From: Botryllus schlosseri
Lineage: Eukaryota
DNA: 64,000 nucleotides
Direction: 5' to 3'
Assembly (NCBI GenBank): GCA_051294905.1
Contig: CM119371.1
Coordinates: 124,001-188,000, forward strand
Below, piece by piece: positions 5,831-51,480 of the stretch. A program made the position numbers and the translations under genes. The first letter of the stretch is position 1, and the number at the start of each line of letters is the position of its first letter. The notes below the pieces were generated by a model that saw nothing but the letters and a program-made list of their open reading frames with translations, did not search any database and had not been told where the DNA came from.

Positions 5831-6699
5831 TGTCCTCATTTAGGAGCATTTGTCCCTTTTTCAAGATTTTCAAAATGTCCTGAGACACAGTAAATCAGCA
5901 GAAATAACGCCCACGCTGGCTATTTCGGGAGCTGAGCCAAAAACTTGACTTATTTTAATCAACCGACCGGGAGAAATTTCAAGTAATATGGTAACCCTAG
6001 CGCTACAGAAACTTGCAAATGTGAGTCTGTGATGATGGTATATATTACTATCTTCGTGCCTCGTGCTAATCGAACCGTTATTACGAATATAATATGATCT
6101 TTCAAAAAAATTAAGCAGACAGTCATTTTTATGTCATTTCTCCCGCGTGTAATGAGCTCAGAAGAGCTGATGCGCTGCAGCCTATGCATGCCACGACACC
6201 CGCTTTCGTATCAGACTTTTTTGTAGGTAATAAATACAGCGTACAAACAATAATTAGCCTACGGCTGGTATGAGGCAAAGTTATTGTTAAATATACGATT
6301 AGTGGTGGGTCATAGGTCAAACACGTTTTTGAATTTGCGTTGCAACAACAAAAGTTACGGAGCCACTGCACTCGAATTTCCTATTAGGTTTATTCGAATT
6401 ATTCCACGCCAGAACAAGTAACAATTATTCACTATTTTCATCCACACTGAAAATTGTTTCATCAACACAAATGCGTACCATCCGTCAGGTTGAAAGGCAC
6501 TGCGCTAGTTCATTAAATAGAGAAAATCATAAGTTGGTGATTTTTAATGGGACTCTGGGTCGCGTAAACTTCAACAGAACCACATATAACGAGTGTGATA
6601 TCAAAAAGGCACTAGAAACCGTCTAATTAAAATGAGCCTCTGATATTTGCTTTCAAGTTGCACACTTGGCTTAAAGGGGCACTGCACTCTACAGATGAT

Positions 6700-6970
6700 G
6701 TGGTCTGAAATTGAAAAGCATAACGAAAAAAAATATTTGGTCGCAGCCGTTTTCTTCAGAACGCCACCGTAATGGAGCTGCAATGTATTGAAATTTCCAG
6801 AAACACATCACGCTCCAGCAGGCACGCAGAGATCGAACTTTATATAGTTATCAGCCGATGTTATGAAGGAAATATGTCGTACAGGCAAAGGTGGTTTAGA
6901 TACAGCTTTCAACGGAAGATGTTCAATCAGAATATTTATGTCAAAATCGGGTCTACTGTATTCTATTTCT
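6700..6970 (+). repeat. Interspersed repeat; second copy at ~38170-38441
   Basis: Both loci share TTTTCTTCAGAACGCC...GAACTTTATATAGTT...ATGTTATGAAGGAAATATG...GGTGGTTTAGATA...TTTATGTCAAAAT. Confidence 0.8.
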
Positions 6971-7185
6971 GTCGTGTACGACATATTTCCTTTATAATAT
7001 CGGCTGACAACTATATAAAGTTCGATCTCTGCGTGACTATATTAGACTATATTAAATCAAAATTCAGCAACAGCACTATATTTAGGGGTATTAGATTTAT
7101 CATAGTTACATAATTTCACGGATATCATGTACATAAATAAACTCCAGTCATGTAGATAAGTATTTATCTAGAGATACTCAAATAA

Positions 7186-7657
7186 CGGGGCATCAAACCA
7201 CTAGGTGTCGCCAGACTTCTGGTGGTGGTAACCGCCATTGTTACGTATACGCGGTTGCCGTTATCAGAAACCTGTAGGTTACTTTCTCGATTGCGTAAGG
7301 GTATTTTATATGGAAATAATGGCTACAACATTCTACGTGGACCGTGAGCTCGCTATAAAATGAACTAAAACTTCGGAAAGCTTCTACGGAAGGAAATAAG
7401 GCCGATTTGATAACTAGGTGAGAATGTGAAATTGTCAACTAAATGTCGGCTACCCGCTCAGTACCAGAAGTTTTCGAAGTTTTAGTTCATTTTATAGCGA
7501 GCTCAGGGTCGACGTACAATATGTTGTAGCCATTATTTCCATATAAAATACCCTTACACAATCGAGAAGGTAACCTACAGGTTCCTACGGCAACCGCGTA
7601 CGAAACAACGGTGGTTACCACCAAAAGTCTGACGACACCTAGTGGTTTGATGGACCC
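7186..7657. mobile_element. Palindromic MITE with ~200-bp imperfect inverted arms
   Basis: CATCAAACCACTAGGTGTCG at 7191 is mirrored by CGACACCTAGTGGTTTGATG at 7633-7652; the inner arm GAGCTCGCTATAAAATGAACTAAAACTTCG is also mirrored. Confidence 0.8.
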
Positions 7658-7659
7658 TA

Positions 7660-8500
7660 TTCAATCAGTTTTACGTCACCACCTATTGTAAATTTGAAAT
7701 AATCAGTTGGAATACAATATTATTGATATATTTTGAATCGAAATTGATTTTTGTACGATTTTTGCCTGCAACCTATTTAGTGCAGTTTCTCGAAAGGTTC
7801 CAGCAATGGTCTGACATAATATGTTCAATGGTTCATCTCATCTGCTCTGGTATCTTTATATTGTTGTTCTGATGACTTGTTAGAACCTCCTAATGTGAAA
7901 TTGGAAACTTTCATCGGTATTCGAATATACCAGATACCAGATTTAAGCTTCTCGTTTGATAGGGTTACTAGGTAGGCTATACCCACTTTGCTGACTCAGT
8001 GGAAAATTATCCATTTACCAGTCAAAATAAATGAGACACATGTGAGTATTGTGGTTAAGCCTTTCATGAACAAATTTTATAGTTTATACTCCTCTTTAAT
8101 CTTGGTAGAATGACCAATTGATACAGGAGAAGATGAGTTTCTGTTTCTCAAAAGTACAATTTTTGGGCTTGAAAAACTGTTTTTTTGACAAAAAAATATT
8201 TCGCATCATGCCATGTTAATATTGATAGAAGGAGTGAGAATGACATGAGGGTTTTTCATAGTCAATTAGCCATTTATGTGCAGTATAAAATTAGAAAAAA
8301 CTACGATTTTCTTCCTACCAAGTGAAATATTCAAGGGTAAACACAGTACTTTTGGGCTTTTTTAGGGGTATAACTATATTCTGACAGAGACCCAATCTGA
8401 CAAAGCTAATGATATTCGTAATCAGCAACCTCAAAAACCCCCGAAACGGCTCTCAGCTGTTCTGCCTAAAAAAAAAATCATTTTGTTGACAAGTGTAATC
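7660..8500 (+). repeat. Degenerate interspersed repeat; related copy at ~13190-13660
   Basis: Both loci share AATCAGTTTTA..CCACCTATT..AAATAATCAGTTGGAA and TTCCTACCAAGTGAAATATTCAAGGGTAA blocks in the same order. Confidence 0.6.
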
Positions 8501-10417
8501 ACTCATTATGACGATATAAGTATATGGGAGACCCAAACGCTTGAGTATGTAGCCTACTTTTCATGTAACTACGAAACATAAGGCCGGCTCTTCACCACGT
8601 GATGATGATCTGGTATTTTTGAAAATACTTTATTTGGCTTTGTGACAATGTTGCAAGTTGATCACAGCTACACAGAAATGTCATTTACTCTAACGTGCAT
8701 AGCTTTGTACAGTATGTTTCGTATGTTGCGATATGACTAATCGAGGTTTCAGAAAATTGATGCAATTATAACTTTTTGATGGAACTGGGCGTAAAGTTTC
8801 ATTAGTCCAAAAAATCGTCTTTCTATACTTGACTGGAATCATTACAGTTACGGAACTTGATTCAGATTCGACTACCGGTACGCAAATCATTGTGCCTCGG
8901 TCCCATAGATAATATGGACCTCAATGTAAAACGATGCTGCGAGTGTGATCAAGTTTAACCTTGAGCCTTGATCAAGCCAGAGTAACGGATTGTTTGTGCC
9001 ATGAAAATAGATTTGGACTCCATCAAGTTTCATACTTTGCAGAAGTTTGGCTGATAACCTAGCGAAATATATCTTAGTAACTATCAATTTATCTTGAATG
9101 AATTACATACCATAAGTATAGTTTCCACGATATGGCATGATGAAAAACAAGCTTTTAATGATCATTCAACTGTGAAATTGAAGGGCTTTTTCAAGGCAAA
9201 TTTGAAATTGCGTCTGTAATTGGGCTACTGTGACCTTACAATCCTGTTCACTTTGTTATGGTATAAATATTGTTCTATTCTGTCATGTAAGTAAGAGATT
9301 AGGCCTAATAATTTTTCATGTTCGGCCCTAAATGTAGCTCGAGTTTGGGGTCATTGTCTACAGAAATCAGTCAAGTGTGACAATATTATAGGATTCTCGT
9401 TCTCATTTCTGTCTGCTTTGAAATTTTTGCCACCAATTGAAAGATTCGCCAACTATACTGATTAGCATCAATGTTATGAACTATCTCTGGACTCTCCCAG
9501 CTAATATTTCATTACGGTACTGTTCTTGAGTAGCAACAATGTTTTCTACCACCTTGACTCTGCCTGAAAATATTTTATTATTCTACTCGAGTGGCATTAT
9601 TGTCGGCACCTATCTCAACATGGGTGTCTACTCTATACATCCCCTACAATTATTATACCCTTTCTTACAGATAGCATGGAACTGCCCGAGATTTTATGCA
9701 ATTCAACGTTATATGAAGACCCAAACAGAAATCACCGCCGTGTCTCTCACAATGATAAAGGTACCGATTATTGCTACTCTAGTAGCATAGTTGGCGACAT
9801 TGGAAAAATAGAAACATTCATAAGAGGCCAGTAAAGAGATATTTCCGGCGCATACTGTGAGTGCTTGGTCTTAATGCTTGGTTGATCTCAGTTGTCAAGT
9901 CCAAAAAGAAACGCGAAATCAAGACATTTCCCGCTGCTATCGAAGGGCGGCTGGTGTTCATTCGAATCTGTCGATGGATGTTACGGAAGACGGTGGGCCA
10001 AGCCTTTCCATGAGTATGGACAGATTTTCTATGCCAACATATGTCTCACTGCATCAGTGGTTGACAGTCAGCTGCATTTTTGAATTACTAACCTAGAGCT
10101 AGTCACTTTTTAAACCTTGAAACTAGAACTAGAACTACAGTACTCAAAAAGCCAGTAGCTAGCAGACCCGGCTTGTCACTTGATAAAATATGTAGTCACA
10201 CAATTTACAGAATTGAGACATAGCTTTTTCCTGGTAACACATTCGATTTGAGTTGAAGTTCAGGCCATCTCCGGTGATGACATGCAAGCGACAATTATGA
10301 GCTGAATCGCATAGTGTACATTATCCTTTTTTAAGCTGTTTTGCGGATGGTTCGGTGTCGCGTTTTGCAAGGTGTAAATAATAAATACAATTAAATAGTA
10401 TATTCATATTGAAATGA

Positions 10418-10461
10418 ACCCGAATATTTTCGGCTGACACTCGTCAGGGGTAATCGTCAGC
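10418..10461 (-). ncRNA. Minimal hammerhead ribozyme (Penelope pLTR type), intact copy
   Basis: Minus strand reads GCTGAC GATT ACCC CTGACGA G TGTCAGC C GAAA ATAT TC GGGT. Core CUGANGA/GAAA, stem I ACCC/GGGT, palindromic AUAU loop III, UC cleavage site. Confidence 0.8.
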
Positions 10462-10611
10462 AACTAGTAGAGAATTGGAAAGAACATTGTATATCAACAA
10501 TCGTATCACAAAATATGACGTCACCAGCATGAAATTTCGAATGAGAGAGCGTTCAATGTACTATTTTTAGGTGATACACGAACTCCTTTTGTTGACAGAG
10601 TTTTGGTTGGT

Positions 10612-19975: not shown

Positions 19976-20275
19976 ATCATTCATGAACTCATTTTAGCAA
20001 CTCTCAGAACCAATTGGAGTGCGCTTGGTCACCAGATGTCGTAAATAAGCTGCATGAAGTAATAAATTTGTTCCATAGTTATAAAAGTATATGAAAGTGG
20101 TTTACAAGTATATTTGACTCATCGTCCCCTTATCAAGCTCGATATATCTTTATCACGCCCATAATGGAAGAAGTACTATCAGCAGCGAAGTAGTTGTGCT
20201 TTTCTGTAGTACTTATTATAATATACTTGTTAGTAGTATAGTCGATCGGTCGTGAGCGGCTAATTTTTTGCATTG

Positions 20276-20925
20276 GTTCTTATGGGTGCGGCGGTGAGGT
20301 GCCGCGAAAACTCGTGGTGGTGATGGCACCCTTTTACACCCCCTCTCGGCGGTGAGGTGCCATGTGTTCTTATGGATGCGGTGATGATGGCACCCTTTCG
20401 GGTATAGGCTGCGGCGGTGAGGTGCCGCGAAAACTCGTGGTGGTGATGGCACCCTTTCAGACCCCCTCTCGGCGGTGAGGTGCCATGTGTTCTTATGGAT
20501 GCGGTGATGATGACACCCTTTCGGGTATAGGCCGCGGTCGTGATTCGCCGTGAAAACTCGTGGTCGTGACTCGCCTTTTTTGCTATAGGCGGTGGCGGCG
20601 ATTCGCCTGTCGTGTATTCTTACGGGATCTGTGGTGATTCGCCATGTGTTCTTATGGGCGGGGTGGCGATTCGCCTGGAAACCCGGGGTGGCGATTCGCC
20701 TTTTTAGACCCCCCTCTGGGCCGCGATTCGCCATGTGTTCTTATGGGTGCGGTCGTGATTCGCCTTTTCGGGTATAGGCTGCGGTGGTGATTCGCCGTGA
20801 AAACCTGGGGTGGTGACTCGCCTTTTTTGCTATAGGCGGTGGCGGCGATTCGCCTGTCGTGTATTCTTACGGGATCTGTGGTGATTCGCCATGTGTTCTT
20901 ATGGATGCGGTCGTGATTCGCACTT
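20276..20925. repeat. GC/CpG-rich subterminal array, probably the original TIR; mirror at ~34280-34928
   Basis: About 25-bp units of a core (GGTGATTCGCC / GGCGATTCGCC / GGTGAGGTGCC / GATGGCACC) plus recurring spacers. A higher-order 123-bp duplication starts at 20287 and 20410. Confidence 0.85.
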
Positions 20926-23900
20926 TCAACCATCTCTCGCGTGGTGTTGAATAGTCACCAACAATAACCGCACAAACGGAAACGTGGCTTGCAAGAGGAT
21001 TAAGCAGTGCGACCTATATTTCGAATGACCTGCGCGCTGAATTGTTGCCCGTGCAGCTGTTTTGTGCTACTATCGTATCGATTATTACACTAATCCAGTC
21101 AGTGCGAAATAGTTTGCTAAATCTAGGAATCACTTCCAAGGTAATATTTTGGTAATTAGTTTACCGCAGAGCCGGCGTAGTCGGCGATTCGAATATCAAC
21201 AATAACCGCGTTCACAAACTAACACTTCAAAAATGTGTGAAATAGTTTGCAAAACCCCGCGATCTCTGACAAGACTCGGGTGACATGATAACGTTACAGG
21301 TATAGGCTGAGGTGGTGATTCGCCATGTGTTCTTATGGGTGCGCTCGCACGTCGTACTTTCAAGTATAGGTATCTCTCGCATGTCGTATTGGAAACTCGT
21401 GTTGGCTCGCTCACGCGGTGAAATTTTAGTAATCAGTTTGTCGCAGAACTTGATTTCACTCATAAGATTTAATAAGTAACGAATAACAGACCGCCAGTGT
21501 GGGTAACTTGAATAGCGACAAATTGTCACTTATTTCCGCTCTAAGCCTAATCCTTTGTGAAGTGAACGCTTATTCAAAATGTTGTGATATAATTTTAAAA
21601 TCCAACGACCACTCACCGGATAATGCTGCAGACATAGCACTCTCTCATGCCCGCTCACATGGTAATATTTCGGTAATTAGTTTGTCACAGAACCGTCGCA
21701 GACGGTGATTCAAAACCAGCAATTTGTCACTTGCCCGCGATCGCTATATGTTTTGACACTTCAGAAGAGTGGTTGACTTTAGTTGCGTGATACAAATCAT
21801 GAGAATATTCAATCAATGCGTCAATTTGTCAACTCGAAATGAAACTCACTACACAGTTCAAGTTGATTCGTATCTGAATGTGTTAATTCGGTACAATTCT
21901 AATTATTTTGAGAAATCTTTTCGTGATCTTTTGATTCGACTGCAACCTGAATATTACTGACACCGACTTTTAGCCACATCGAATTATTCGCACACTCCGC
22001 GCCGTCGTTTTCATAGCTATAGAATCAATACCAACTATAACTCTACAAGAATCAAGAATCACAAGTATGTGCATTATACAGTTATTGTCTTTATCAACAC
22101 GAAATCAAACTCTTAACAAAAACACGCAACTAATCATTTGGCAACTCTAGCATTACCAAAAAATTCCAGTATTGTTGATTGAAAATCCTTGAGTCATTAT
22201 TATCAAAAATGTTATAGTACCGCATCGGAATCCATTCGCGGGATGTACTAAAGGTAAATCCAGATAATCCAAAATGAAATATTTGGACTTTGACAAACAT
22301 GACTACCAACTTTGATCCAGTCACATTTCAAGATTACACTTTGAAACAATCCTTGAAACTTACAACTCTATTCACGACTGAGTTTTCCGTTTATCAGTTT
22401 CAGTAAATACTATCGCGATATTTTTATGTGTTACTACACACAATAGAATCAATCAATGAAATAGCACCTGTTGTAAATATTTCTAACTTGACAACCACTT
22501 ATGCATACCGCGATCGACTTGTGACGCGATGAGTTAAATCGGAATATTTCAATCTATTTTTTGAAACCTTGAACAAGCTATCAGGTGTTTTTTTTTGTAA
22601 TCGAGTGAACGGAAATAGTATTACGTCTAAACATTTTACCATCTTCCCATAAACAAAAGAGTAAAATACAAAAAACCTTGTCAAGTCAACCCGTTTGTAA
22701 CTTACCCAACCAAAGCAAAAAGTATCCTTATGAAAAGTAGACAAGACTACGCCAGTAATCACCACAATCCAAAATCCATAGCAAGTTCGGTTGTATTCAT
22801 AGTCCACCAACTCGTATTTTTATTCAACTGTAAAAGTCGTTACTACTCTGCAAGACAAAAAAAAATTACTATGTGGTATATTTTGTAAGACAAAAGTAAT
22901 TACTTCTCGGTGTCGGCGACTTGAGATTAACATATGTTTTGAGTATATGATATTTGAATGTCTGACCAACGTAATTGAGAACTCATTTCTTACAATCGAA
23001 CGATTGTGTTATATTCAAAGTTATCATGCTGTGAACATAAGGATTGACACATTGCTTTGACATATGAGATTTTGTAATAGTTGATCATTACTTTATTATT
23101 GAATTATTTGCGTTAATTAGACCCGGCATTGTGGTAAATGTTATGACAGCAACAAACTTTTCAGTACCAATGTTATTAACATATTAAGCTGTAAAACTAT
23201 GTGTGTCTGAAATGTTCTTGATAGGAAAATTACTCCACCTTGGTAAAAATCACTCTGCGTATCGCGGATATCAGAAAATATTTTCAGTAACAAAGACTAA
23301 AGATGAAACGACAATATCGGTATTATTACATTCAACAATCAGTACAATTATTAAAATCTATCGTTTGCGATAAACAACACTAAAGATGTAATAATTCCAG
23401 TATTCATACATTAAACCTCCGATACAAAATGCTTTATTATCCCGATTCCCAACGGGTAATTGAAACGACTAAGTGTAGAATCAGTATATCACAGTATCGT
23501 TACTATTGAATCCAACGATTTATCGTCGGAATTTGTGACAGAGAATTGAAACATATGCACTTTACAGAGTGTGAAAATATCACTTTGAGTATCGAGTACC
23601 GTTCGAAGCTAGCGATGAATTCTCAATCATTTCAGTAACTCCCCCCATTGTGCGTGCTAAATGTAAAATATCGCGAGGTTATACACTCTAAGACTTTGGT
23701 CATTACAAAAGTAAATTGTGATATGTTTGTTAGATGCATCCAATTCAGTTAGAAATGTCTGATGCACAACAATCGTAATATCAAAAAAGTACTTGCTACA
23801 CTGTTATTTGCTAAACGTGTTTTGCATTGTTGTTCATTTGTAGTATTGATTGAAATTGTTCTTGAACCCTCAAATAATAATTCCTGACATGAAACTAAGC

Positions 23901-23990
23901 CGCCGAAAGTCGTTACCATCACAAAGAAACAATTTGCACGATGTTTACTAAATGTGTCCTATAGTTAGGTGTACTGGAATTATTAGTAAA

Positions 23991-24016
23991 ACACACACAC
24001 ACACACACACACACAC
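23991..24016 (+). repeat. (AC)13 microsatellite; mirror (GT)14 at 31180-31207
   Basis: Read directly. Confidence 0.95.
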
Positions 24017-25753
24017 GATCAGAGAAATTGGAAATTTTTCCGTTGTCATTCGCTAAAGTAAATGTCATCACAATACTCTGTCACTAAAAGACGTTACTTG
24101 GACGTGCTTGAATTCTAGACATAGTTCTGATTTACCCAACACAAGACCCAAGGACAACCCTAGTTTCACCCAAACACAGATATCCAAAATATCACACACT
24201 TCGCTATTCCTAAAGCACAAACACCCGATACAAAATAATACTTATTGTGTTGTTGCGGCATCATCACTCAACAATATCACCCTCAATACAAATGATGTTT
24301 ATGTGTAACATGCTATTGATTTGAACCACACCCACCTGGCGGAAGAGGATTTACTCAATCTTTACAAAATGGATATTGACCAACATCACATCACCGGATT
24401 GTATCTGTTTCGCTGGTTACGAGTTATGTTAGTTTAACAGTAAACAAATTTCACCCTCTTGGATTATGAACTCAATGCGTTAGCGATCATTCAATATTTT
24501 GTTTGTGTCAACTAGTTACTCGGTATGTTACTCCACAACTCTTACAAAAGTACGAAGGATATTAACATCACACTAAGTAATTAACTTTACTCGATATTCT
24601 CGCATTACGAAACTAAAGAATGGTTGGTTAGACTCTACAAACTGTTTCGATATCATAAGACCTTTATTGTCTGAATGGGTGTTCCTGTGTCTTAAGAACC
24701 AAATAGTTCAACACAGCACTAGTACCAACAGAAACATCAGAGTTGTTTACACAAAAGTTTGTATGCGTGCAGTATGCGAATACCATGTGTAAGTCCAGCA
24801 CAATTGCAGTATCCATCCGAGTTTAGTCAACACAAATTTATTACAACGGAGCCACGTAAACTTTCGTGAAAGAAAAGCATACTCACTTCCAGAGGGTTAT
24901 GTCAACACCATAGCAGTAAATCAGCTACTCCAACAACAAAGTACATATGTTTCTAGCCACGATCCTTACATCTTTCACATAGATCAATCTACTTTGCTAA
25001 CGAAAAGTGCTGAGTCATCACATAATCACCCTCACAACAAAACAGCTAGTAGATATTATCACTCAAAATATTCCTGACCCTTTACACACCAGTGACAAAT
25101 CATACAACGAATATGTTTTGGGGGTCGAATTGTTGTTCAGTGTCAAGTCTACCTGTTGAAACGTACATTAAAACAACACAGTCACAATTCAATTAAAACC
25201 ACGAATCTATTTTCATTTCCTCGCAAACTGTCACATACAGAAAAATAAATTTTATTCTGCCAAAACATACTTGTAACCAATCGCTTTCATTAAACACACA
25301 ACACCATAAAAGTATTTACTTTCTACAACATAGACATTCCGATGTAGTCAAGAAATATTTTTATTAATCAAAATCATCGACTTCTGTTTACGGCGTTAGT
25401 GTGTGCATGTCATACATGTGGGATCCGTATTAAAATGGACACGACACGACTGAATGTAAGGGGGGTAGAAGTCTATCACATCGATTTACATGTGGTCTTC
25501 GCTACGGTTTCAAAAAACGAATCATCTCTTTTGCATTGATCGAGACCGAGCAAGTTAGTTAATGACCATGATTGTGTTTGTCATATGCGAATGATAGGGT
25601 TACTGTCAAATCTACATACAACAACCTTCTGGCACTCATAATAGCAATTTCATTCTCTCCCTTCGTAATTGTAGACTCACGACAAGTATATTGTACAGCT
25701 CGACAGCTACGTTTAACAACACCAACGACACAAAACATACGATACCTACGCAA

Positions 25754-26360
25754 GTAAAATTACCATTTTCACCTGGAGGTCAGTCGTTACCTGAGTAAAA
25801 ATACCATTATTCTTTGGAGATTTATCGTTTATTCAGAGTAACAATCCCCTTTTCACTTGGAAATATATTTTTGGCCTGAATAACAAACCCCTTTTCACTT
25901 GGAAATCTATTTTTGCCCTGGATAACAAACCTTTTTCACTTGGAAATATATTTTTTCTCTTGGTAACAAACCTTTTTCACTTGGAAATATATTTTTTCTC
26001 TGGGTAACAAACCTTTTTCACTTGTAAATATATTTTTTCTCTTGGTAATAAACCTTTTTCACTTGGAAATATATTTTTTCTCTTGGTAATAAACCTTTTT
26101 CACTTGGAAATATATTTTTTCTCTTGGTAACACACCTTTTTCACTAGGGAATATATTTTTTCTCTGGGTAACAAACCTTTTTCACTTGGGAATATATTTT
26201 TTCCCTGAGCAACAAACCATTTTCACTTGGTGGGTCGTCGTTGACCTTAGTAAAAATATCATTTTCCTTTGGAGATCCGGCGTTTACCAGTGTAACAATA
26301 CATTTTCTCTTGGTCATCTAACTTTTCCTAGAGTAACAAAAACCATTTTCATTTTGAAAT
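25754..26360. repeat. 41-42 bp minisatellite, about 14 units
   Basis: Central unit GTAACAAACCTTTTTCACTTGGAAATATATTTTTTCTCTTG; flanking units are more diverged. Confidence 0.9.
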
Positions 26361-27601
26361 CTGACAAACACACCTGACAATTTGGTATTTGTTGTATTGA
26401 CGATAGTTTGAAATAGATTACAACGAGCAGTGACGGAAATATACACGGACTACCGGTTTCAGAGTATACCTCCATCAGTCGTATCACAGCAATATCATCG
26501 GTTAACCTTATACAATATCCTCTTGTACACAGAAATGCATGTTTCGGAAAATTGGACAATAGACTTCGATAGCTCTGTGATGTCCAGGTTCACGCTTTGG
26601 ATTTTCCAGAGTCAAAATGTCTGAATAAAACACCTCCTCGATGATGGTTGGTATGTGGATAACGGTATTCGGAAAACGGTTGGATTTATGTCTCCCATCG
26701 CGATAACAACTCCAGGTCGAGTTTTCCTCCGCATGTTTACTATATTGTGTCTTTATTGGTCAATGTATGTCTCGACATTCAGTTTGAAATCGGAAACCCT
26801 GATAAAGTATGTAGCCGGATCCGGATATCAATTCTGAATCGATAAACCAATGAACAATATTCAAAGTAAACATGTTACATCCTGTGTTTCCACGAAAAAA
26901 TACCATCCAGACATACGTCGCGCTTGTTTACCCACAACAGTATACGCGTAAATGGAGGTGTGTGACATTGCATGCAATGTGTTGGTATACAAACATCGGG
27001 GAGTAAGCCTTCGATCCACAGACATTATCATAGCCGGTAGTTTTGATGTAGATCTAATGTCATCAAGCACACCCGATAACAATGTCATACCAATAAGCCA
27101 CATTGCAACGACTCTGAGTCAATCTGAAGCAGGACATACAGACACACAGACATGGAACCGTAACATGGGTTATTCGCACGACAGTGAAAGTGAACTGTAC
27201 AGTACATACCAATATTGTGATCACAGTCAAATATGCGAACCGTGCACAATCATATACCCAGGTTTTTGTTGGATATGTACGAAACCGATAAATCGATACA
27301 TTTCTTTTCCTTTGACGTCAACAATACAATCACCATTCCAATGTATTGCTCGAATGTGAGGTTCATCTGGTGTAAAATCCATGTCAAATAACACCAAAGT
27401 GTGCTTTCCGTGTTTTATTATTTCCACCGTCGCTTCTTGTCTGTGTCGTAACACTATGGTGCAGGGACTTGAAAAACGGTGGATTGTGAAACAGATTGAC
27501 ATGACCAACAGAATCGACGTCAATAGACTTGTGACGATGTCGTTTCAAAATGCTCCGATATGACGAGCGCAACCTCGATCTATTGTGGCGATGACCGTTT
27601 C

Positions 27602-27657
27602 GAAATGTTACCGGACGAACTGGACCCTTGAAATGTTACCGGACGAACTGGATCCTT
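27602..27657 (+). repeat. 28-bp tandem duplication at the centre of the palindromic element
   Basis: GAAATGTTACCGGACGAACTGGA(C/T)CCTT twice. Confidence 0.95.
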
Positions 27658-28835
27658 ACGATGGTGTGTTTTATGATTGTGTGTGAAATCACGAGGCAGT
27701 GTTTTATTGTGGTATACGATTGCAGTCTTCATTCCCACTGAAACACACCTTATTGGATCACAGTATCAGCCCGAGATTTGCAGAATCACTGTTCACGATA
27801 TTTATCTGGAGTCGTTATGTGGGAGTAGTGACATCCATGCATCGTGATTTAGTGAAAGACTGATCGCAATCATTTCGAGCACTCGTACTAGATCAAACGC
27901 TGTAGCCTCAGCAGAAAACTTCGGTGTCGACAACACGATTGATATTGACCGATGTATCCAATTGGTCTGGGTGGTCTGTCCGGAGATAGGGCCATAACTA
28001 TCTTGTAATGTTACAACACGATAACACCATCGAGTAAATCAGTGAACGGTGCCGAAATATCGATGTAATAGCGCGGACTCAGAGTCATCGCAATGTGGCT
28101 TATTGGTATGACATTGTTATCGGGTGTGCTTGATGACATTAGATCTACATCAAAACTACCGGCTATGATAATGTCTGTGGATCGAAGGCTTACTCCCCGA
28201 TGTTTGTATACCAACACATTGCATGCAATGTCACACACCTCCATTTACGCGTATACTGTTGTGGGTAAACAAGCGCGACGTATGTCTGGATGGTATTTTT
28301 TCGTGGAAACACAGGATGTAACATGTTTACTTTGAATATTGTTCATTGGTTTATCGATTCAGAATTGATATCCGGATCCGGCTACATACTTTATCAGGGT
28401 TTCCAATTTCAAACTGAATGTCGAGACATACATTGACCAATAAAGACACAATATAGTAAACATGCGGAGGAAAACTCGACCTGGAGTTGTTATCGCGATG
28501 GGAGACATAAATCCAACCGTTTTCCGAATACCGTTATCCACATACCAACCATCATCGAGGAGGTGTTTTATTCAGACATTTTGACTCTGGAAAATCCAAA
28601 GCGTGAACCTGGACATCACAGAGCTATCGAAGTCTATTGTCCAATTTTCCGAAACATGCATTTCTGTGTACAAGAGGATATTGTATAAGGTTAACCGATG
28701 ATATTGCTGTGATACGACTGATGGAGGTATACTCTGAAACCGGTAGTCCGTGTATATTTCCGTCACTGCTCGTTGTAATCTATTTCAAACTATCGTCAAT
28801 ACAACAAATACCAAATTGTCAGGTGTGTTTGTCAG

Positions 28836-29442
28836 ATTTCAAAATGAAAATGGTTTTTGTTACTCTAGGAAAAGTTAGATGACCAAGAGAAAATGTATTG
28901 TTACACTGGTAAACGCCGGATCTCCAAAGGAAAATGATATTTTTACTAAGGTCAACGACGACCCACCAAGTGAAAATGGTTTGTTGCTCAGGGAAAAAAT
29001 ATATTCCCAAGTGAAAAAGGTTTGTTACCCAGAGAAAAAATATATTCCCTAGTGAAAAAGGTTTGTTACCAAGAGAAAAAATATATTTCCAAGTGAAAAA
29101 GGTTTATTACCAAGAGAAAAAATATATTTCCAAGTGAAAAAGGTTTATTACCAAGAGAAAAAATATATTTACAAGTGAAAAAGGTTTGTTACCCAGAGAA
29201 AAAATATATTTCCAAGTGAAAAAGGTTTGTTACCAAGAGAAAAAATATATTTCCAAGTGAAAAAGGTTTGTTATCCAGGGCAAAAATAGATTTCCAAGTG
29301 AAAAGGGGTTTGTTATTCAGGCCAAAAATATATTTCCAAGTGAAAAGGGGATTGTTACTCTGAATAAACGATAAATCTCCAAAGAATAATGGTATTTTTA
29401 CTCAGGTAACGACTGACCTCCAGGTGAAAATGGTAATTTTAC
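28836..29442. repeat. Mirror copy of the 41-42 bp minisatellite
   Basis: CCAAGTGAAAAAGGTTTGTTACCAAGAGAAAAAATATATTT units. Confidence 0.9.
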
Positions 29443-31179
29443 TTGCGTAGGTATCGTATGTTTTGTGTCGTTGGTGTTGTTAAACGTAGCTGTCGAGCTG
29501 TACAATATACTTGTCGTGAGTCTACAATTACGAAGGAAGAGAATGAAATTGCTATTATGAGTGCCAGAAGGTTGTTGTATGTAGATTTGACAGTAACCCT
29601 ATCATTCGCATATGACAAACACAATCATGGTCATTAACTAACTTGCTCGGTCTCGATCAATGCAAAAGAGATGATTCGTTTTTTGAAACCGTAGCGAAGA
29701 CCACATGTAAATCGATGTGATAGACTTCTACCCCCCTTACATTCAGTCGTGTCGTGTCCATTTTAATACGGATCCCACATGTATGACATGCACACACTAA
29801 CGCCGTAAACAGAAGTCGATGATTTTGATTAATAAAAATATTTCTTGACTACATCGGAATGTCTATGTTGTAGAAAGTAAATACTTTTATGGTGTTGTGT
29901 GTTTAATGAAAGCGATTGGTTACAAGTATGTTTTGGCAGAATAAAATTTATTTTTCTGTATGTGACAGTTTGCGAGGAAATGAAAATAGATTCGTGGTTT
30001 TAATTGAATTGTGACTGTGTTGTTTTAATGTACGTTTCAACAGGTAGACTTGACACTGAACAACAATTCGACCCACAAAACATATTCGTTGTATGATTTG
30101 TCACTGGTGTGTAAAGGGTTAGGAATATTTTGAGTGATAATATCTACTAGCTGTTTTGTTGTGAGGGCGATTATGTGATGACTCAGCACTTTTCGTTAGC
30201 AAAGTAGATTGATCTATGTGAAAGATGTAAGGATCGTGGCTAGAAACATATGTACTTTGTTGTTGGAGTAGCTGATTTACTGCTATGGTGTTGACATAAC
30301 CCTCTGGAAGTGAGTATGCTTTTCTTTCACGAAAGTTTACGTGGCTCCGTTGTAATAAATTTGTGTTGACTAAACTCGGATGGATACTGCAATTGTGCTG
30401 GACTTACACATGGTATTCGCATACTGCACGCATACAAACTTTTGTGTAAACAACTCTGATGTTTCTGTTGGTACTAGTGCTGTGTTGAACTATTTGGTTC
30501 TTAAGACACAGGAACACCCATTCAGACAATAAAGGTCTTATGATATCGAAACAGTTTGTAGAGTCTAACCAACCATTCTTTAGTTTCGTAATGCGAGAAT
30601 ATCGAGTAAAGTTAATTACTTAGTGTGATGTTAATATCCTTCGTACTTTTGTAAGAGTTGTGGAGTAACATACCGAGTAACTAGTTGACACAAACAAAAT
30701 ATTGAATGATCGCTAACGCATTGAGTTCATAATCCAAGAGGGTGAAATTTGTTTACTGTTAAACTAACATAACTCGTAACCAGCGAAACAGATACAATCC
30801 GGTGATGTGATGTTGGTCAATATCCATTTTGTAAAGATTGAGTAAATCCTCTTCCGCCAGGTGGGTGTGGTTCAAATCAATAGCATGTTACACATAAACA
30901 TCATTTGTATTGAGGGTGATATTGTTGAGTGATGATGCCGCAACAACACAATAAGTATTATTTTGTATCGGGTGTTTGTGCTTTAGGAATAGCGAAGTGT
31001 GTGATATTTTGGATATCTGTGTTTGGGTGAAACTAGGGTTGTCCTTGGGTCTTGTGTTGGGTAAATCAGAACTATGTCTAGAATTCAAGCACGTCCAAGT
31101 AACGTCTTTTAGTGACAGAGTATTGTGATGACATTTACTTTAGCGAATGACAACGGAAAAATTTCCAATTTCTCTGATC

Positions 31180-31210
<31 letters not shown>

Positions 31211-32982
31211 ACTAATAATTCCAGTACACCTAACTATAGGACACATTTAGTAAACATCGTGCAAATTGTTTCTTTGTGATGGTAACGACTTTCGGCGGCT
31301 TAGTTTCATGTCAGGAATTATTATTTGAGGGTTCAAGAACAATTTCAATCAATACTACAAATGAACAACAATGCAAAACACGTTTAGCAAATAACAGTGT
31401 AGCAAGTACTTTTTTGATATTACGATTGTTGTGCATCAGACATTTCTAACTGAATTGGATGCATCTAACAAACATATCACAATTTACTTTTGTAATGACC
31501 AAAGTCTTAGAGTGTATAACCTCGCGATATTTTACATTTAGCACGCACAATGGGGGGAGTTACTGAAATGATTGAGAATTCATCGCTAGCTTCGAACGGT
31601 ACTCGATACTCAAAGTGATATTTTCACACTCTGTAAAGTGCATATGTTTCAATTCTCTGTCACAAATTCCGACGATAAATCGTTGGATTCAATAGTAACG
31701 ATACTGTGATATACTGATTCTACACTTAGTCGTTTCAATTACCCGTTGGGAATCGGGATAATAAAGCATTTTGTATCGGAGGTTTAATGTATGAATACTG
31801 GAATTATTACATCTTTAGTGTTGTTTATCGCAAACGATAGATTTTAATAATTGTACTGATTGTTGAATGTAATAATACCGATATTGTCGTTTCATCTTTA
31901 GTCTTTGTTACTGAAAATATTTTCTGATATCCGCGATACGCAGAGTGATTTTTACCAAGGTGGAGTAATTTTCCTATCAAGAACATTTCAGACACACATA
32001 GTTTTACAGCTTAATATGTTAATAACATTGGTACTGAAAAGTTTGTTGCTGTCATAACATTTACCACAATGCCGGGTCTAATTAACGCAAATAATTCAAT
32101 AATAAAGTAATGATCAACTATTACAAAATCTCATATGTCAAAGCAATGTGTCAATCCTTATGTTCACAGCATGATAACTTTGAATATAACACCATCGTTC
32201 GATTGTAAGAAATGAGTTCTCAATTACGTTGGTCAGACATTCAAATATCATATACTCAAAACATATGTTAATCTCAAGTCGCCGACACCGAGAAGTAATT
32301 ACTTTTGTCTTACAAAATATACCACATAGTAATTTTTTTTTGTCTTGCAGAGTAGTAACGACTTTTACAGTTGAATAAAAATACGAGTTGGTGGACTATG
32401 AATACAACCGAACTTGCTATGGATTTTGGATTGTGGTGATTACTGGCGTAGTCTTGTCTACTTTTCATAAGGATACTTTTTGCTTTGGTTGGGTAAGTTA
32501 CAAACGGGTTGACTTGACAAGGTTTTTTGTATTTTACTCTTTTGTTTATGGGAAGATGGTAAAATGTTGAGACGTAATACTATTTCCGTTCACTCGATTA
32601 CAAAAAAAAACACCTGATAGCTTGTTCAAGGTTTCAAAAAATAGATTGAAATATTCCGATTTAACTCATCGCGTCACAAGTCGATCGCGGTATGCATAAG
32701 TGGTTGTCAAGTTAGAAATATTTACAACAGGTGCTATTTCATTGATTGATTCTATTGTGTGTAGTAACACATAAAAATATCGCGATAGTATTTACTGAAA
32801 CTGATAAACGGAAAACTCAGTCGTGAATAGAGTTGTAAGTTTCAAGGATTGTTTCAAAGTGTAATCTTGAAATGTGACTGGATCAAAGTTGGTAGTCATG
32901 TTTGTCAAAGTCCAAATATTTCATTTTGGATTATCTGGATTTACCTTTAGTACATCCCGCGAATGGATTCCGATGCGGTACT

Positions 32983-33105
32983 ATAACATTTTTGATAATA
33001 ATGACTCAAGGATTTTCAATCAACAATACTGGAATTTTTTGGTAATGCTAGAGTTGCCAAATGATTAGTTGCGTGTTTTTGTTAAGAGTTTGATTTCGTG
33101 TTGAT
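32983..33105 (+). pseudogene. Eroded C-terminal remnant of the Polinton protease; mirror at ~22093-22215 on the minus strand
   Basis: ATAACATTTTTGATAATAATGACTCAAGGATTTTCA (ITFLIIMTQGFS) and CGTGTTTTTGTTAAGAGTTTGATTTC align to ~4181-4300 (IAFLIKRAQGFS...RAFVKSLIS). Confidence 0.65.
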
Positions 33106-35408
33106 AAAGACAATAACTGTATAATGCACATACTTGTGATTCTTGATTCTTGTAGAGTTATAGTTGGTATTGATTCTATAGCTATGAAAACGACGGCGCG
33201 GAGTGTGCGAATAATTCGATGTGGCTAAAAGTCGGTGTCAGTAATATTCAGGTTGCAGTCGAATCAAAAGATCACGAAAAGATTTCTCAAAATAATTAGA
33301 ATTGTACCGAATTAACACATTCAGATACGAATCAACTTGAACTGTGTAGTGAGTTTCATTTCGAGTTGACAAATTGACGCATTGATTGAATATTCTCATG
33401 ATTTGTATCACGCAACTAAAGTCAACCACTCTTCTGAAGTGTCAAAACATATAGCGATCGCGGGCAAGTGACAAATTGCTGGTTTTGAATCACCGTCTGC
33501 GACGGTTCTGTGACAAACTAATTACCGAAATATTACCATGTGAGCGGGCATGAGAGAGTGCTATGTCTGCAGCATTATCCGGTGAGTGGTCGTTGGATTT
33601 TAAAATTATATCACAACATTTTGAATAAGCGTTCACTTCACAAAGGATTAGGCTTAGAGCGGAAATAAGTGACAATTTGTCGCTATTCAAGTTACCCACA
33701 CTGGCGGTCTGTTATTCGTTACTTATTAAATCTTATGAGTGAAATCAAGTTCTGCGACAAACTGATTACTAAAATTTCACCGCGTGAGCGAGCCAACACG
33801 AGTTTCCAATACGACATGCGAGAGATACCTATACTTGAAAGTACGACGTGCGAGCGCACCCATAAGAACACATGGCGAATCACCACCTCAGCCTATACCT
33901 GTAACGTTATCATGTCACCCGAGTCATTATCTTGTCAGAGATCGCGGGGTTTTGCAAACTATTTCACACATTTTTGAAGTGTTAGTTTGTGAACGCGGTT
34001 ATTGTTGATATTCGAATCGCCGACTACGCCGGCTCTGCGGTAAACTAATTACCAAAATATTACCTTGGAAGTGATTCCTAGATTTAGCAAACTATTTCGC
34101 ACTGACTGGATTAGTGTAATAATCGATACGATAGTAGCACAAAACAGCTGCACGGGCAACAATTCAGCGCGCAGGTCATTCGAAATATAGGTCGCACTGC
34201 TTAATCCTCTTGCAAGCCACGTTTCCGTTTGTGCGGTTATTGTTGGTGACTATTCAACACCACGCGAGAGATGGTTGAAAGTGCGAATCACGACCGCATC
34301 CATAAGAACACATGGCGAATCACCACAGATCCCGTAAGAATACACGACAGGCGAATCGCCGCCACCGCCTATAGCAAAAAAGGCGAGTCACCACCCCAGG
34401 TTTTCACGGCGAATCACCACCGCAGCCTATACCCGAAAAGGCGAATCACGACCGCACCCATAAGAACACATGGCGAATCGCGGCCCAGAGGGGGGTCTAA
34501 AAAGGCGAATCGCCACCCCGGGTTTCCAGGCGAATCGCCACCCCGCCCATAAGAACACATGGCGAATCACCACAGATCCCGTAAGAATACACGACAGGCG
34601 AATCGCCGCCACCGCCTATAGCAAAAAAGGCGAGTCACGACCACGAGTTTTCACGGCGAATCACGACCGCGGCCTATACCCGAAAGGGTGTCATCATCAC
34701 CGCATCCATAAGAACACATGGCACCTCACCGCCGAGAGGGGGTCTGAAAGGGTGCCATCACCACCACGAGTTTTCGCGGCACCTCACCGCCGCAGCCTAT
34801 ACCCGAAAGGGTGCCATCATCACCGCATCCATAAGAACACATGGCACCTCACCGCCGAGAGGGGGTGTAAAAGGGTGCCATCACCACCACGAGTTTTCGC
34901 GGCACCTCACCGCCGCACCCATAAGAACCAATGCAAAAAATTAGCCGCTCACGACCGATCGACTATACTACTCTTGTTTCGCTTACTCAAGTAGTTTTGT
35001 TCGTATACGACATCTACCTCAACAATTTTTTTATTGGTAATACTAATTTTTGCATACTTGGCATTGTCTAGTAAATTTTGACGCACACTGACGATGCCTT
35101 GCTTCAGAATTAACACGTTAAGCTTACAAGCAGCAACGTGTGGGAGATCATGCCTGAATTTCGTACAACAATTAATCGTATTAAGTATGGGATATCGAAA
35201 TCCACTAAAATTCATAAATACCGTGCATTATCACATAACCCTGATAACGACATTATGTCATGCATATAACTAAAGCCTCATGATTTCTAGCATTAGTAAC
35301 GGATTGGACCTGTTCCGTGAATTGACCATTACATTCAAAGTGATCGCGCTCATGTAATATACCTAATTAGGCGTATCTAAGATACGATGCAACCAAACAA
35401 TGACTCAC

Positions 35409-46490: not shown

Positions 46491-46672
46491 ATAATAAGCA
46501 TACAGAGAGAGATTCAAACGAAAACCAAATTGGCAAAGTATGACGTAATAATACAATAAAAAATTAACGCTAGGCAAAGTCAGCTGTACCGGTAGTCATA
46601 GCAAGAGAAGAGAGAAAATCAAATTATACTATAATACACGGAAGACAACACACAGACAATTAGCGGTATATA

Positions 46673-49600
46673 TTAATGGGAAATTTTGAGATTATATAGA
46701 AACTCATTCTGCCTACATAAATCCGGATTGGTCAATTTTATTAAGGTTGACTCCAAGACAGACAGATGGAAGGCAGATCTGCATCTAGCAATCACAGTGA
46801 ACATACTGTCATTGTAATGACTGGCACACACCGGGTAGTTCATTAAATGTTGACCAATTGCAGAGTTGAACGCTGAGACCTGGTCATAGGAATTAGAGTC
46901 AACCGCTTCCTTACACCGACGAACAAGTGCAGATCGATCGATAGGTTTGTTTGCTGACCTAATTGATTTAGGCACATGTTGGTTCACTCGTTCTGCCAAC
47001 CGCAAAGATGTGCGACCCACATACCGACTATCACAGTGGCATTGGAATTTATATACAATATTACTTGTTTGTAAAGCAGGGAGCACATCCTTGCGAGTTT
47101 GTGGCATGAGCGGCCTAGTCATGAACACCACTCGGGTATTTAGCATAAAATAGCACGATTGCACTGATGACCGAATTTGATTAGAAAAGCCGACTGACAC
47201 TGACCCAAGCCAAGAGAGATGTATGTATACTAGGGTTGTCTAGATTTGGGCACTTTTTTTGAAATCTTGTTTTGCGTAATTGCACATGATAGTTTAGTGC
47301 ATAAAAACACCTCCAAAAGCGATTTTGGTCATTTTCATCGCGATCTTCCTTGCGCGCAAAGCACCCAAAGACCCACGGGCGAATTCTCCTTACTACCGAC
47401 GATTCACCGTTCCTGGCTTGTAGCTTTTGTCAAGTTTGCGGCCGAGTAGAGCTGGGAAATATCAGGTTGAATTATCTTTTTGACGATTGAACATACTTAC
47501 ATTCCTATACATTCCAAATGTGGTTCACCTTCCCGTATTTGGCATAGTTAGCCGCATGGTAGGCCTATGTATGAACGAATACAGGCATTTTCAGCTTGAC
47601 TCAGTCAATGTGAATCAAAGACATATCGTATATGAATGCAATTTCATATTTATAGTAGCTCCAATTCACCTAATCCGCATCAGGTTTGCAGTATTTAATG
47701 CGTCTGAAGGAATGTTGCCCCCCCCCCCCCCCCGAACACAAAAACTCAGGCCTGTAACGTCCAAGACGTTGTCACAGTAGCGAATACAGCCAAAATGCCT
47801 AGGTAGGCTACATTGTGCAAATGTCAAAAGCTCACGATGCTAGGCTTCTTCTCAAAAGATCATTGTAGTTGAGTCTAAATGGGGGTCCTGATCCTCAACT
47901 AACAATGCATTCTGTCAGAAAACGTCCTCGGTGTTCTTACGGAAACAGAAACAATAATCTCAATACGTAGTTGTGAGCACATACCAAAGTGGGGGACGAC
48001 AATGACTAATATGCCATTTTGTTAGTAGTGTTAAAGTCGTTAATGACGCTGCTGAACGAGGAGTTTAACTCAACACCGACTTTTGCTTCGATCATCACAG
48101 ATGAAGAGCGCCAAAAGAAAAGTCTGCTGCAAGTTGTTGAGCTACATTATCAGAAGTATGACAACTTCAATAAACCAACATTGAAATCCTATAAGCCTGC
48201 CTTAGACTAGAGCCCGTTGTTATCCACTTTTTGTTTTACGCTTACCCAATTCTCAATGTGCTTTAATGATAATAACTGTCTTTTCATCCTTCACAATTGT
48301 CTCAAGTCACGTAAATGGTCGGCCTACTATGTCCGGATTTGTGTTTAGCCTTATTCTGCTTTTCAAGTCTGATAAGGCAAATTTCCTTACAATAAATCAT
48401 CAAGTTTCAGAAACATTGTCTGTGCCAGATTTTTTTTTAATTCAGTCGTAAGCACATACCATAGTGGGTGACGACAATGACCAATATGTATTGAGATTAT
48501 TGTTTCTATTCCCGTAAGAACACCGTGGACGTTTTCTTACAGAATGCGTTGGTAGTTGAGGATCAGGACCCCCATTTAGATTTAACTGTCATGATATTTT
48601 GAGAAGAAGCCTAGTGTCGTCAGCTTTTGACATTTGTACAATGTAGCTAGTATTCCGGCCGTATTCGTTACTGTGACAACGCCTTGGACAGTACAGGCCT
48701 GAGTTTTTGTGTTAGGAGGTGGGGGGGGGTCAACATTCCTTCAGACGCATTAAATACTGAAAACTTGATGCGGATTAGGTGAATTGGAGCTACTATAAAG
48801 ATGAAATTACATTCATACACAATATGTCTTTAATTAACATTTACCAAGTTAAAACAAGCTGAAAATGCCTGTATTCGTTCAAACATAGGCCTACCACGCG
48901 GCAACCTATGTCAAATACGGGAAGGTGAACCACATTTGGAATGTAAGTATGTTCAATCGTCAAAAATATAATTCAACCTGATATTTCCCAGGTCTACTCA
49001 GCCGTTTTCTACCGCAATCTTCACAAAAGCTACAAACCAGGAATGGTGAATCGTCGGTAGTAAGGAGAATTGGCCCGTGGGTCTTTGGGGGCTTTGCGCG
49101 CAAGGAAGATCGCGATGAAAATGACCAAAATCGCTTTTAGAAGTGTTTTTATGCACTAAACTATCATTTGGAATTACGCAAAACAATATTCCAAAAAAAA
49201 TGCCTAAATCTGAACAACCCTAATGTATACAGGGCATTTGTCTGGTCCATGAATTCGCGCCTGTTTGAATTGCGACATTTTCTTTGTGATGGCAGATTCA
49301 ATTACGTAGTCTGGATATCCATTGTCAATCAACATGGATTTGATTTTATCAATCTGTGCCACGAGCCGAACATCAGAGCATATTATTAGCGCACGGTGAA
49401 CTAATGACGAAATCAAATTTAATTTCCGTTGTTTAGGGCGAAATGAGTCCCAGCGAATATAGTGACCGGTAAACGTTGGTTTCCTATATACTGAAGTAAT
49501 GAAACCGAGGTTGCTCTTTTCCACCAATACGTCGAGAAAGGCGAGTGAGCTGCCAGACTCTTTTTCGATAGTGAAGTTTAGCGACTCGTGCAAGTTGTTT

Positions 49601-49791
49601 AGAGAAGCTAAGAAAACATTGCAATCGTCTTCACTGTCGAAAATTGCGAATGTGTCATCAACATATCTAACATACATGCGCGGTTTGATTACATTTAAGA
49701 AAAGTTTGCTTTCTTGGAAATCAACAAATATATTTGCCAAACTAGGCCCAAGGGGTGACCCCATTGCCAAACCATCTATTTGGAGATACAT
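46673..49791 (-). pseudogene. Inverted partial Penelope RT-EN ORF split by a nested hAT element
   Basis: 49791-49223 reads MYLQIDGLAMGSPL..YVDDTF..DKCPVY; 47222-46673 holds the GIY-YIG part. Nearly identical to the plus copy. Confidence 0.9.
47231..49222. mobile_element. Non-autonomous hAT-type foldback element (1,992 bp, ~735-bp imperfect TIRs)
   Basis: TAGGGTTGT...ACAACCCTA; perfect 8-bp TSD ATGTATAC (47223-47230 and 49223-49230). The empty site is present in the sister Penelope copy at ~50738. Confidence 0.92.
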
Positions 49792-51295: not shown

Positions 51296-51480
51296 TATAT
51301 ACCGCTAATTGTCTGTGTGTTGTCTTCCGTGTATTATAGTATAATTTGATTTTCTCTCTTCTCTTGCTATGACTACCGGTACAGCTGACTTTGCCTAGCG
51401 TTAATTTTTTATTATTGTATTATTACGTCATACTTTGTCAATTTGGTTTTCGTTTGAATCTCTCTCTGTATGCTTATTAT

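Follow-up and report, generated by a model that had tools for sequence, protein, structure and literature searches.

We analysed a stretch of the Botryllus schlosseri genome 64,000 nucleotides long (hereafter the window; C1:124001-188000 of a 495.5-Mb assembly in 219 contigs) and found that it contains a 14,741-bp palindromic element with Polinton/Maverick ends, which has several hundred copies in the same genome. The reading that we favour, with a probability of about 0.62, is that this element represents one insertion of a large family of helper-dependent Maverick satellites that are built as inverted dimers and whose arms are reset during mobilisation. A family copy consists of two non-coding arms of ~6.4-6.9 kb with Maverick termini and a unique core of ~0.9 kb that carries an open reading frame (ORF) of 91 codons. 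Because the element lacks a polymerase and an integrase, it needs a helper, in agreement with an earlier note on this DNA, which had called for a helper's integrase; the satellite would depend on the integrase and the polymerase of gene-bearing Mavericks.

A palindromic element and its genomic family

Aligned end to end, the two arms of the element are 99.739% identical, with 10 mismatches and 2 indels (6 and 2 bp), and make up 93.5% of its length (Table 1). The element is bordered by unique sequence on both flanks, and its left junction is crossed without a difference by a 63-nt unitig of public run X1, which may be the source sample. The AGTAGT/ACTACT ends, the perfect 6-bp target-site duplication (TSD) CTTGTT, the near-identical inverted arms (then put at ~94% of the element) and the 955-bp spacer had all been described in the earlier note and are all present, and the clean TSD supports its further claim that the palindrome existed before integration. 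Tandem arrays take up ~0.56 + 0.39 kb of each 6.9-kb arm, and the arms also carry an (AC)13 run. The chance of matching 6-bp flanks is 1/4096 per element, and chance is excluded as the source of a 6.9-kb inverted repeat combined with recurrent 6-bp flanks. The element tests as Polinton/Maverick-ended (6-bp TSD and AG...CT terminal inverted repeats, TIRs) but not as an autonomous element.

The longest of the 18 stop-to-stop frames of at least 80 aa in the element has 174 aa. A Pfam search with a six-frame read-through of arm and core, in which stops were written as X, revealed no family at E<=0.1, and tblastn of 19 ORFs from two gene-bearing relatives gave no match to the element at E<=0.01. 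By these searches the element has no protein-primed polymerase (pPolB; the 1,295-aa and 1,219-aa pPolB ORFs were among the tblastn queries), no rve integrase, and no double-jelly-roll capsid protein, packaging ATPase or protease. A RING-finger match in frame 26952-27359 (E 0.0048) was under the Pfam cut-off and was taken as noise, and an Rfam search returned no family. The protease remnant that the earlier note had seen in both arms was accordingly not recovered by either protein search, and the heavy coding decay that it took to be common to the arms has no counterpart in a detectable coding remnant.

The element belongs to a large family. A 28-mer of the core (at 27435), conserved in 14 copies, occurs at 210+252 = 462 places in the genome with at most 3 mismatches, compared with 0 for the reversed control, and near full-length matches to the 955-bp core, 82-99% identical, were present in 40/40 scored candidates (of 1,055 at first look). 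Inverted arm sequence lies on both sides of the core in all nine other central loci fetched; two of these loci have lost part of one arm. Matches to the terminal 28-mer number 72+63 (control 0). From the 100 of them that were listed, 39 plus/minus terminus pairs could be formed, 19 of them 13-15 kb apart, 7 shorter and 13 longer; pairs of <13 kb and >15 kb are mostly known from their end positions alone. At ~460 copies of 14 kb, the satellite alone would be about 1.3% of the genome.

Eleven elements were read over their full or almost full length, comprising ten fetched whole and one copy of a second family described below. Six of the ten are palindromic and measure 13,578-14,711 bp; their arms are 6,391-6,887 bp long and their centres 332-937 bp. 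The rest are a 20-kb palindromic element with an assembly gap, a 21-kb element with an off-centre palindrome and two gene-bearing elements. When terminus pairs of 13.6-14.7 kb other than the window copy were fetched whole, six of seven proved to be palindromes and the seventh carries pPolB. Nine of the ten elements have perfect 6-bp TSDs, all different, and the tenth has one mismatch, so that each of the seven fully read palindromic copies, the window's included, has its own 6-bp duplication, in one case with a single mismatch. The 20-kb element (C2:3706474-3726514; 20,041 bp, TSD TCAAGG) contains four 100%-identical segments of 2.8-3.0 kb in alternating orientation around a 100-N gap and is either a double palindrome or an assembly problem.

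The arm/core boundaries coincide among the copies that share the core, indicating that the core palindrome arose once and was then inherited; one palindromic copy has a different, 332-bp centre. Identity of the window element to five other subfamily copies is 0.77-0.96 over the inner 640 bp of the arm plus the core (mean for the inner arm end, 0.85-0.96) but only 0.28-0.75 over most of the arm. A further core copy, ~16 kb upstream of the window at C1:107794-108705, is 88% identical and has an intact 91-codon ORF (C1:108324-108596).

These loci bear on two simpler explanations. The palindrome could be an assembly fold-back, for example from chimeric long reads, and it is true that the public runs consist of short unitigs and that the 20-kb copy with its 100-N gap resembles such a problem. 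We nevertheless regard the chance of an artefact as negligible: the arms differ at 10 sites and 2 indels, the flanks are unique and the TSD is perfect, the X1 unitig spans the left junction unchanged, and seven further loci on other contigs (six of this first family, one of the second) are palindromic with a 6-bp TSD of their own. Hardly more credible is a single defective-interfering genome, in which one snap-back of a parental Polinton end was followed by one integration. The same core and arm boundaries recur in hundreds of copies diverged to 82-99% identity, and the arms do not match the helper examined beyond 0.86 kb, although the palindromic build and the clean TSD fit such an origin. 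The one snap-back of a parental genome proposed in the earlier note thus gives way to a palindrome inherited, with the same core, by about 460 copies. The other palindromic members and the matching helper whose absence that note thought would tell against a satellite were both found.

Concerted evolution of the arms

Within a copy, substitution divergence between the arms was 0.03-0.48% in the seven copies compared, and the differences were spread evenly along the arms. A gradient from outer to inner positions, expected if the outer parts were re-synthesised more often, was absent: the outer and inner halves of the arms in the seven copies together had 45 and 42 substitutions, respectively. 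Between copies, 38-85% of the half-element was alignable at 77-84% identity, and large differences always affected both arms of the copy concerned. In a tree built from the inner 760 bp, the arms of one element were sisters in 9/12 elements; the other three belong to a near-identical recent burst at three loci.

The same pattern was seen site by site, where symmetric sites are those that separate the two arms of one copy from the two arms of the other. Comparison with the closest relative revealed 58 symmetric sites, 12 changed in one arm only and 2 others; the second relative gave 37, 13 and 0, and the third 44, 9 and 1, respectively. Arm-specific shared sites numbered 0 in all three comparisons. 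The prevalence of symmetric sites and the lack of arm-specific shared ones indicate that changes are copied from arm to arm.

Where this copying takes place separates the satellite reading from an ordinary non-autonomous foldback transposon, which the Maverick integrase alone would excise or duplicate between chromosomal sites, without protein-primed replication or packaging, and whose arms would be homogenised by gene conversion in place. Concerted evolution by itself is silent on the site of homogenisation, shared ends and TSDs require only an integrase, and no free form has been seen (the public runs are short unitigs). We hold a foldback transposon to be possible though rather unlikely, since the most diverged copies (0.42% and 0.48%) show even arm differences and not converted tracts, damaged copies stay asymmetric (2/9 central loci with one arm partly lost), and large replacements between subfamilies are always symmetric. 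In addition, the several symmetry centres (44, 332, 595 and ~900-955 bp) are easier to obtain by recurrent re-dimerisation. Because differences are evenly scattered in the oldest-looking copies and damaged copies remain asymmetric, resetting in a mobile phase followed by clock-like decay is favoured.

Helper Mavericks, the core ORF and a second family

The earlier note suggested looking for an autonomous Polinton with matching ends. A gene-bearing Maverick was found at C7:2049107-2069998 (hereafter C7). This 20,892-bp copy has the TSD AATGGG, TIRs of ~1.15 kb and the same 28-bp terminus as the window element. It encodes a 1,295-aa pPolB (PF03175) and an rve integrase with a chromodomain, which is split by a nested 4,576-bp insertion; without the insertion the copy measures 16,316 bp. 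The insertion (element positions 5899-10474) has 205-bp inverted ends and separates the integrase rve core from the chromodomain. A 215-aa ORF showed weak ATPase matches below the Pfam cut-offs (AAA_14, E 4.7e-5; Pox_A32, E 0.0047) and a borderline RNA_helicase match (21.6 bits, cut-off 21.5). A 432-aa protein is predicted from its structural model to be a double-jelly-roll capsid protein: the model is a double jelly roll with a predicted local distance difference test (pLDDT) score of 87.3, and Foldseek comparison with the capsid proteins of iridovirus, PBCV-1, Sputnik and mavirus gave E values of 1e-17 to 1e-13.

Other helper genes are open as well. No stop was found in 30/36 scored pPolB loci (of 389 first-look candidates), and 93/147 scored integrase loci are at least 91% identical, mostly with an open 359-aa frame. 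With dozens of open pPolB and integrase genes, helpers are available in the genome; the public protein collection offers no pPolB closer than 42% identity. Integrases of at least two additional classes (~66% and ~55% identity) have open frames of 384 and 339 aa, and further 91-aa ORF classes are 85-90% and 77-79% identical to the second-family type described below; these extra classes suggest several helper/satellite lineages.

The termini connect the window element directly to C7. Its terminal 55 bp are 100% identical to both C7 ends, and bases 1-443 are 98.9-99.1% identical to both, whereas six other palindromic copies match C7 over these bases at only 69-93% and only in part. Homology between arm and C7 ends after the first ~861 bp, and the palindromic copies have homologous inner arms, which C7 lacks. 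Because the termini match C7 and the inner arms match the palindromic copies, ends have been exchanged between the helper and satellite lineages, symmetrically at both ends. A chimera of the two kinds of sequence was found at C15:3043945-3057957 (14,013 bp). Its pPolB side, 96% identical in protein to C7, ends 23 codons into the ATPase-like ORF, where ~4.9 kb of sequence collinear with the satellite arm takes over. The pPolB class of this copy, shared by 10/36 scored pPolB loci, matches the query only from residue ~158.

The unique core contains a conserved 91-codon ORF. The frame is open in 14/14 copies and has 91 codons in 10/12 copies and 93 in 2/12; at the genome scale, it is stop-free in 146/150 scored loci. 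The pooled ratio of non-synonymous to synonymous polymorphism (pN/pS) was 0.36, compared with 0.97-1.22 in four control frames; the antisense frame sharing the wobble positions reached 0.38 yet has 14 stops. Variable sites at codon positions 1/2/3 numbered 18/16/32. The rest of the core (679 bp) has 15 indels, of which 13 are out of frame, whereas the ORF has none inside and two, both in frame, at its edges. Judged by these patterns of sequence variation, the ORF is under purifying selection and can be considered a putative protein-coding gene. The element has no long ORF (maximum 174 aa), but the earlier note's statement that it has no intact gene has to be amended; likewise, of its alternatives of a gene-less lineage propagating or arms being homogenised, propagation without virus genes and homogenisation of the arms both stand, and the gene-less state does not.

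A profile search among 1.84 billion representative proteins revealed one real relative of the ORF protein, 91 aa long and 67% identical without gaps; a match to the WD40 protein P0176, whose E of 2.6e-5 is a sum over 7 repeats, was dismissed as spurious. Pfam returned no family for the 91-aa protein, and the ESM Atlas gave a best score of 0.86, a low recognition. An AlphaFold model is all-beta with a pLDDT of 77.8, and four other models scored 37-58. An alpha-crystallin/CS-type beta-sandwich was considered, for which the best Foldseek E of 0.012 and the best VIA-align Z of 5.3 are too weak to name the fold. Neither of the two gene-bearing copies examined has the ORF, and it is also missing from the palindromic copy with the 332-bp centre. 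TATA or poly(A) signals were looked for around the ORF and none was found, and a sliding-window pN/pS scan across the centre was too noisy to resolve further genes. From raw RNA run X23, 64 reads were aligned, 62 of them fitting only in part, which says nothing firm on expression.

Transcription of the arms would be central if the element were instead a hairpin-RNA locus, domesticated by the host to silence Mavericks through double-stranded RNA. Transcribed arms would fold to a perfect hairpin and would include the terminal 0.44-0.86 kb of the helper. This explanation is nonetheless improbable: most of the arm has no helper homology, all but two of the 64 RNA reads fit only in part, and hundreds of TSD-flanked copies with a recent burst characterise a mobile parasite.

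The 67%-identical relative of the ORF protein is present at 100% identity in the same genome, where it marks a second palindromic family. Of 124 matches at 93% identity or more, 104 form 52 adjacent pairs within 20 kb, and 48/52 pairs are inverted (31 divergent, 17 convergent), with 4 direct. A copy at C3:16026871-16043102 (16,232 bp), read except for ~0.3 kb in the left arm and 3 kb in the right, has the ends AGTAGT...ACTACT, the TSD CTCCAT and 8,094-bp arms; the loop between the arms is 44 bp long and bordered by (CG)4. No difference was found between the arms in the 4,891 bp compared, and each arm carries the ORF once. Compared with the window element, the ORF is the sole homology, and no helper-gene remnant was seen in this copy either. 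Its terminal 28-mer occurs at 11+12 genome places. Because the symmetry centres differ (44, 332, 595 and ~900-955 bp), palindromes arose repeatedly among Maverick-ended elements. In C14:25139165-25176620, a second-family terminus pair (25146064-25161149) is nested inside a 37-kb first-family terminus pair.

For the favoured satellite reading we propose the following mechanism. A helper integrase would insert the satellite, and a helper protein-primed polymerase would copy it from its AGTAGT ends; reiterated ends of this kind are terminal repeats that serve jumping-back initiation in protein-primed replicons. The displaced single strands of such a genome would form a full-length hairpin. The arms would be made identical in the mobile phase, possibly when a displaced strand folds back and one arm is repaired or re-synthesised from the other, as adenovirus repairs one inverted end from the other through such strand pairing, or possibly by recombination among replicating copies. 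After integration they would drift apart slowly, in the manner of long terminal repeats. The arms may largely be length filler that holds the genome near helper size for packaging, and several lengths now bear on the packaging-size constraint at which the earlier note hinted. The seven full palindromic copies are 13,578-14,741 bp long, the second-family copy 16,232 bp and the helper 16,316 bp, which puts dimers of the first family at 83-90%, and that of the second at 99.5%, of the length of the only helper measured. Near-helper length and poorly conserved arm sequence fit a filler role without proving it, and packaging of the satellite would follow only by inference.

A bolder version, which we put forward tentatively and consider doubtful as a whole, is that the palindromes are integrated true satellite viruses. 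They would be protein-primed, capsid-packaged inverted dimers, regenerated through a fold-back hairpin in each round, with filler arms that hold ~83-100% of helper length and with the 91-aa protein, found in at least two otherwise unrelated families, as a factor for exploiting the helper.

Several observations weigh against the satellite reading. In-place conversion from arm to arm would also give concerted evolution. Homology of the arms to the helper examined stops at ~0.86 kb, and a helper origin of the arms is unsupported. The length argument uses a single measured helper, and with 7/39 terminus pairs <13 kb apart (TSDs unchecked) a strict limit on the length that can integrate cannot be claimed. 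The public DNA runs, which consist of short unitigs that break in the repeat, showed no extrachromosomal, hairpin or encapsidated form and gave no long read across a copy.

To our knowledge, the replication and movement of Mavericks/Polintons have never been shown experimentally, and the protein-primed, single-strand 'racket' model of Mavericks is still a proposal. Several hundred copies with halves identical at insertion, exchanged ends and varied centres would constitute a natural record of a replication intermediate, and arm identity at insertion would, if the reading is true, be the first sequence-level read-out of Maverick replication. On this reading, hairpin or monomer forms should exist, the divergence of the arms should scale with insertion age, and particles should contain satellite DNA. 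It would also mean that Mavericks, like adenoviruses and giant viruses, can host genetic parasites of their own, with a small conserved protein of no known family as the satellites' only gene.

The window contains two other features. A reverse-transcriptase element at 46546-51422 has the inverted repeats 46546-47230 / 50738-51422 (685 nt, 99%) and 49223-49793 / 50175-50745 (571 nt, 98%), with RVT_1 matches in frames 49466-51295 (+) and 49204-49809 (-). A 529-aa open frame at 53569-55158 (-) has NACHT and NOD2 winged-helix domains and is an NLR-type host gene; this gene and the marine-invertebrate sources of distant protein matches point to an animal genome.

Table 1 Features of the palindromic element, in window positions
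Feature	Position	Strand	Length	Remarks
Palindromic element	20232-34972		14,741 bp	ends AGTAGT...ACTACT
Left TSD copy	20226-20231		6 bp	CTTGTT
Right TSD copy	34973-34978		6 bp	CTTGTT
Left arm	20232-27120	+	6,889 bp	non-coding
Right arm	28076-34972	-	6,897 bp	reverse complement of left arm
Unique core	27121-28075		955 bp	'spacer' of the earlier note
Helper-type terminus	20232-20674	+		begins with reiterated AGTAGT; mirrored at right end
Subterminal tandem repeats	20287-20848; mirror 34283-34917			period ~123 bp, sub-repeats 58-65 bp
41-bp tandem array	25838-26230; mirror 28966-29358			9.5 copies
Inner arm end	26482-27120	+		with the core, the most conserved part of the family
Conserved 91-codon ORF	27502-27230	-	91 codons	stop TGA at 27227-27229

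Comparison with known systems

With Polintons/Mavericks the element shares AG...CT ends, a 6-bp TSD, long TIRs and termini 99% identical over 443 bp to those of C7. It differs in lacking their defining genes and in the extent of its 6.9-kb 'TIRs', which form 93.5% of the element compared with ~1.15 kb in C7. Our literature search, which covered sources other than subscription journals and Repbase/Dfam, found no description of a palindromic family with Maverick ends.

Foldback (FB) transposons of Drosophila and Tetris resemble the satellite in the great length of their inverted arms, in having tandem repeats towards the ends and in coding for little. FB transposons have 9-bp TSDs and arms that are mainly tandem repeats, whereas the satellite has a 6-bp TSD with Maverick ends and tandem arrays of only ~1 kb per 6.9-kb arm. 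Y-chromosome palindromes and the inverted repeats of plastids and herpesviruses are homogenised by conversion between their arms, and, as in the satellite, the arms remain >99.5% identical while the lineage diverges. Those, however, are single loci or whole genomes, and the satellite shows the pattern in each of many independent insertions.

Palindromic derivatives are also reported from other linear replicons. For pGKL1, a linear killer plasmid of yeast, Kikuchi et al. in 1985 reportedly described palindromic 'hairpin' forms; these are said to be helper-maintained deletion derivatives of a protein-primed linear replicon, as the satellite would be, but cytoplasmic and unintegrated. Snap-back or copy-back defective genomes are described, in a passage of PMC13506859, as highly symmetric, palindromic and helper-dependent. 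The satellite differs from them in that its arms do not appear to be a copy of the helper genome, in its own conserved gene and in forming a long-lived family, not a transient by-product. When the arms were compared with the helper for a snap-back origin, they showed no C7 homology past ~861 bp; the C15 chimera has homology collinear with them over its non-coding half.

Daniell in 1976 reportedly described incomplete particles of adenovirus that have long inverted ends. Helper-dependent ('gutted') adenovirus resembles the satellite, as read here, in being a protein-primed linear replicon with terminal repeats and no virus genes that needs a helper. According to passages of PMC4189039, helper-dependent genomes rearrange when they fall below ~75% of wild-type length, a vector of 15 kb is packaged in the form of direct and inverted dimers, and virions are stable only at ~90% of wild-type length; a passage of PMC2518115 states that tail-to-tail dimers arise during replication. 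The adenovirus dimers are laboratory products and unintegrated, whereas the satellite dimers are natural, heritable, integrated in the germ line and long diversified, with packaging a matter of inference only. Helper-dependent adenovirus DNA is the closest documented analogue of the palindromic Maverick satellites.

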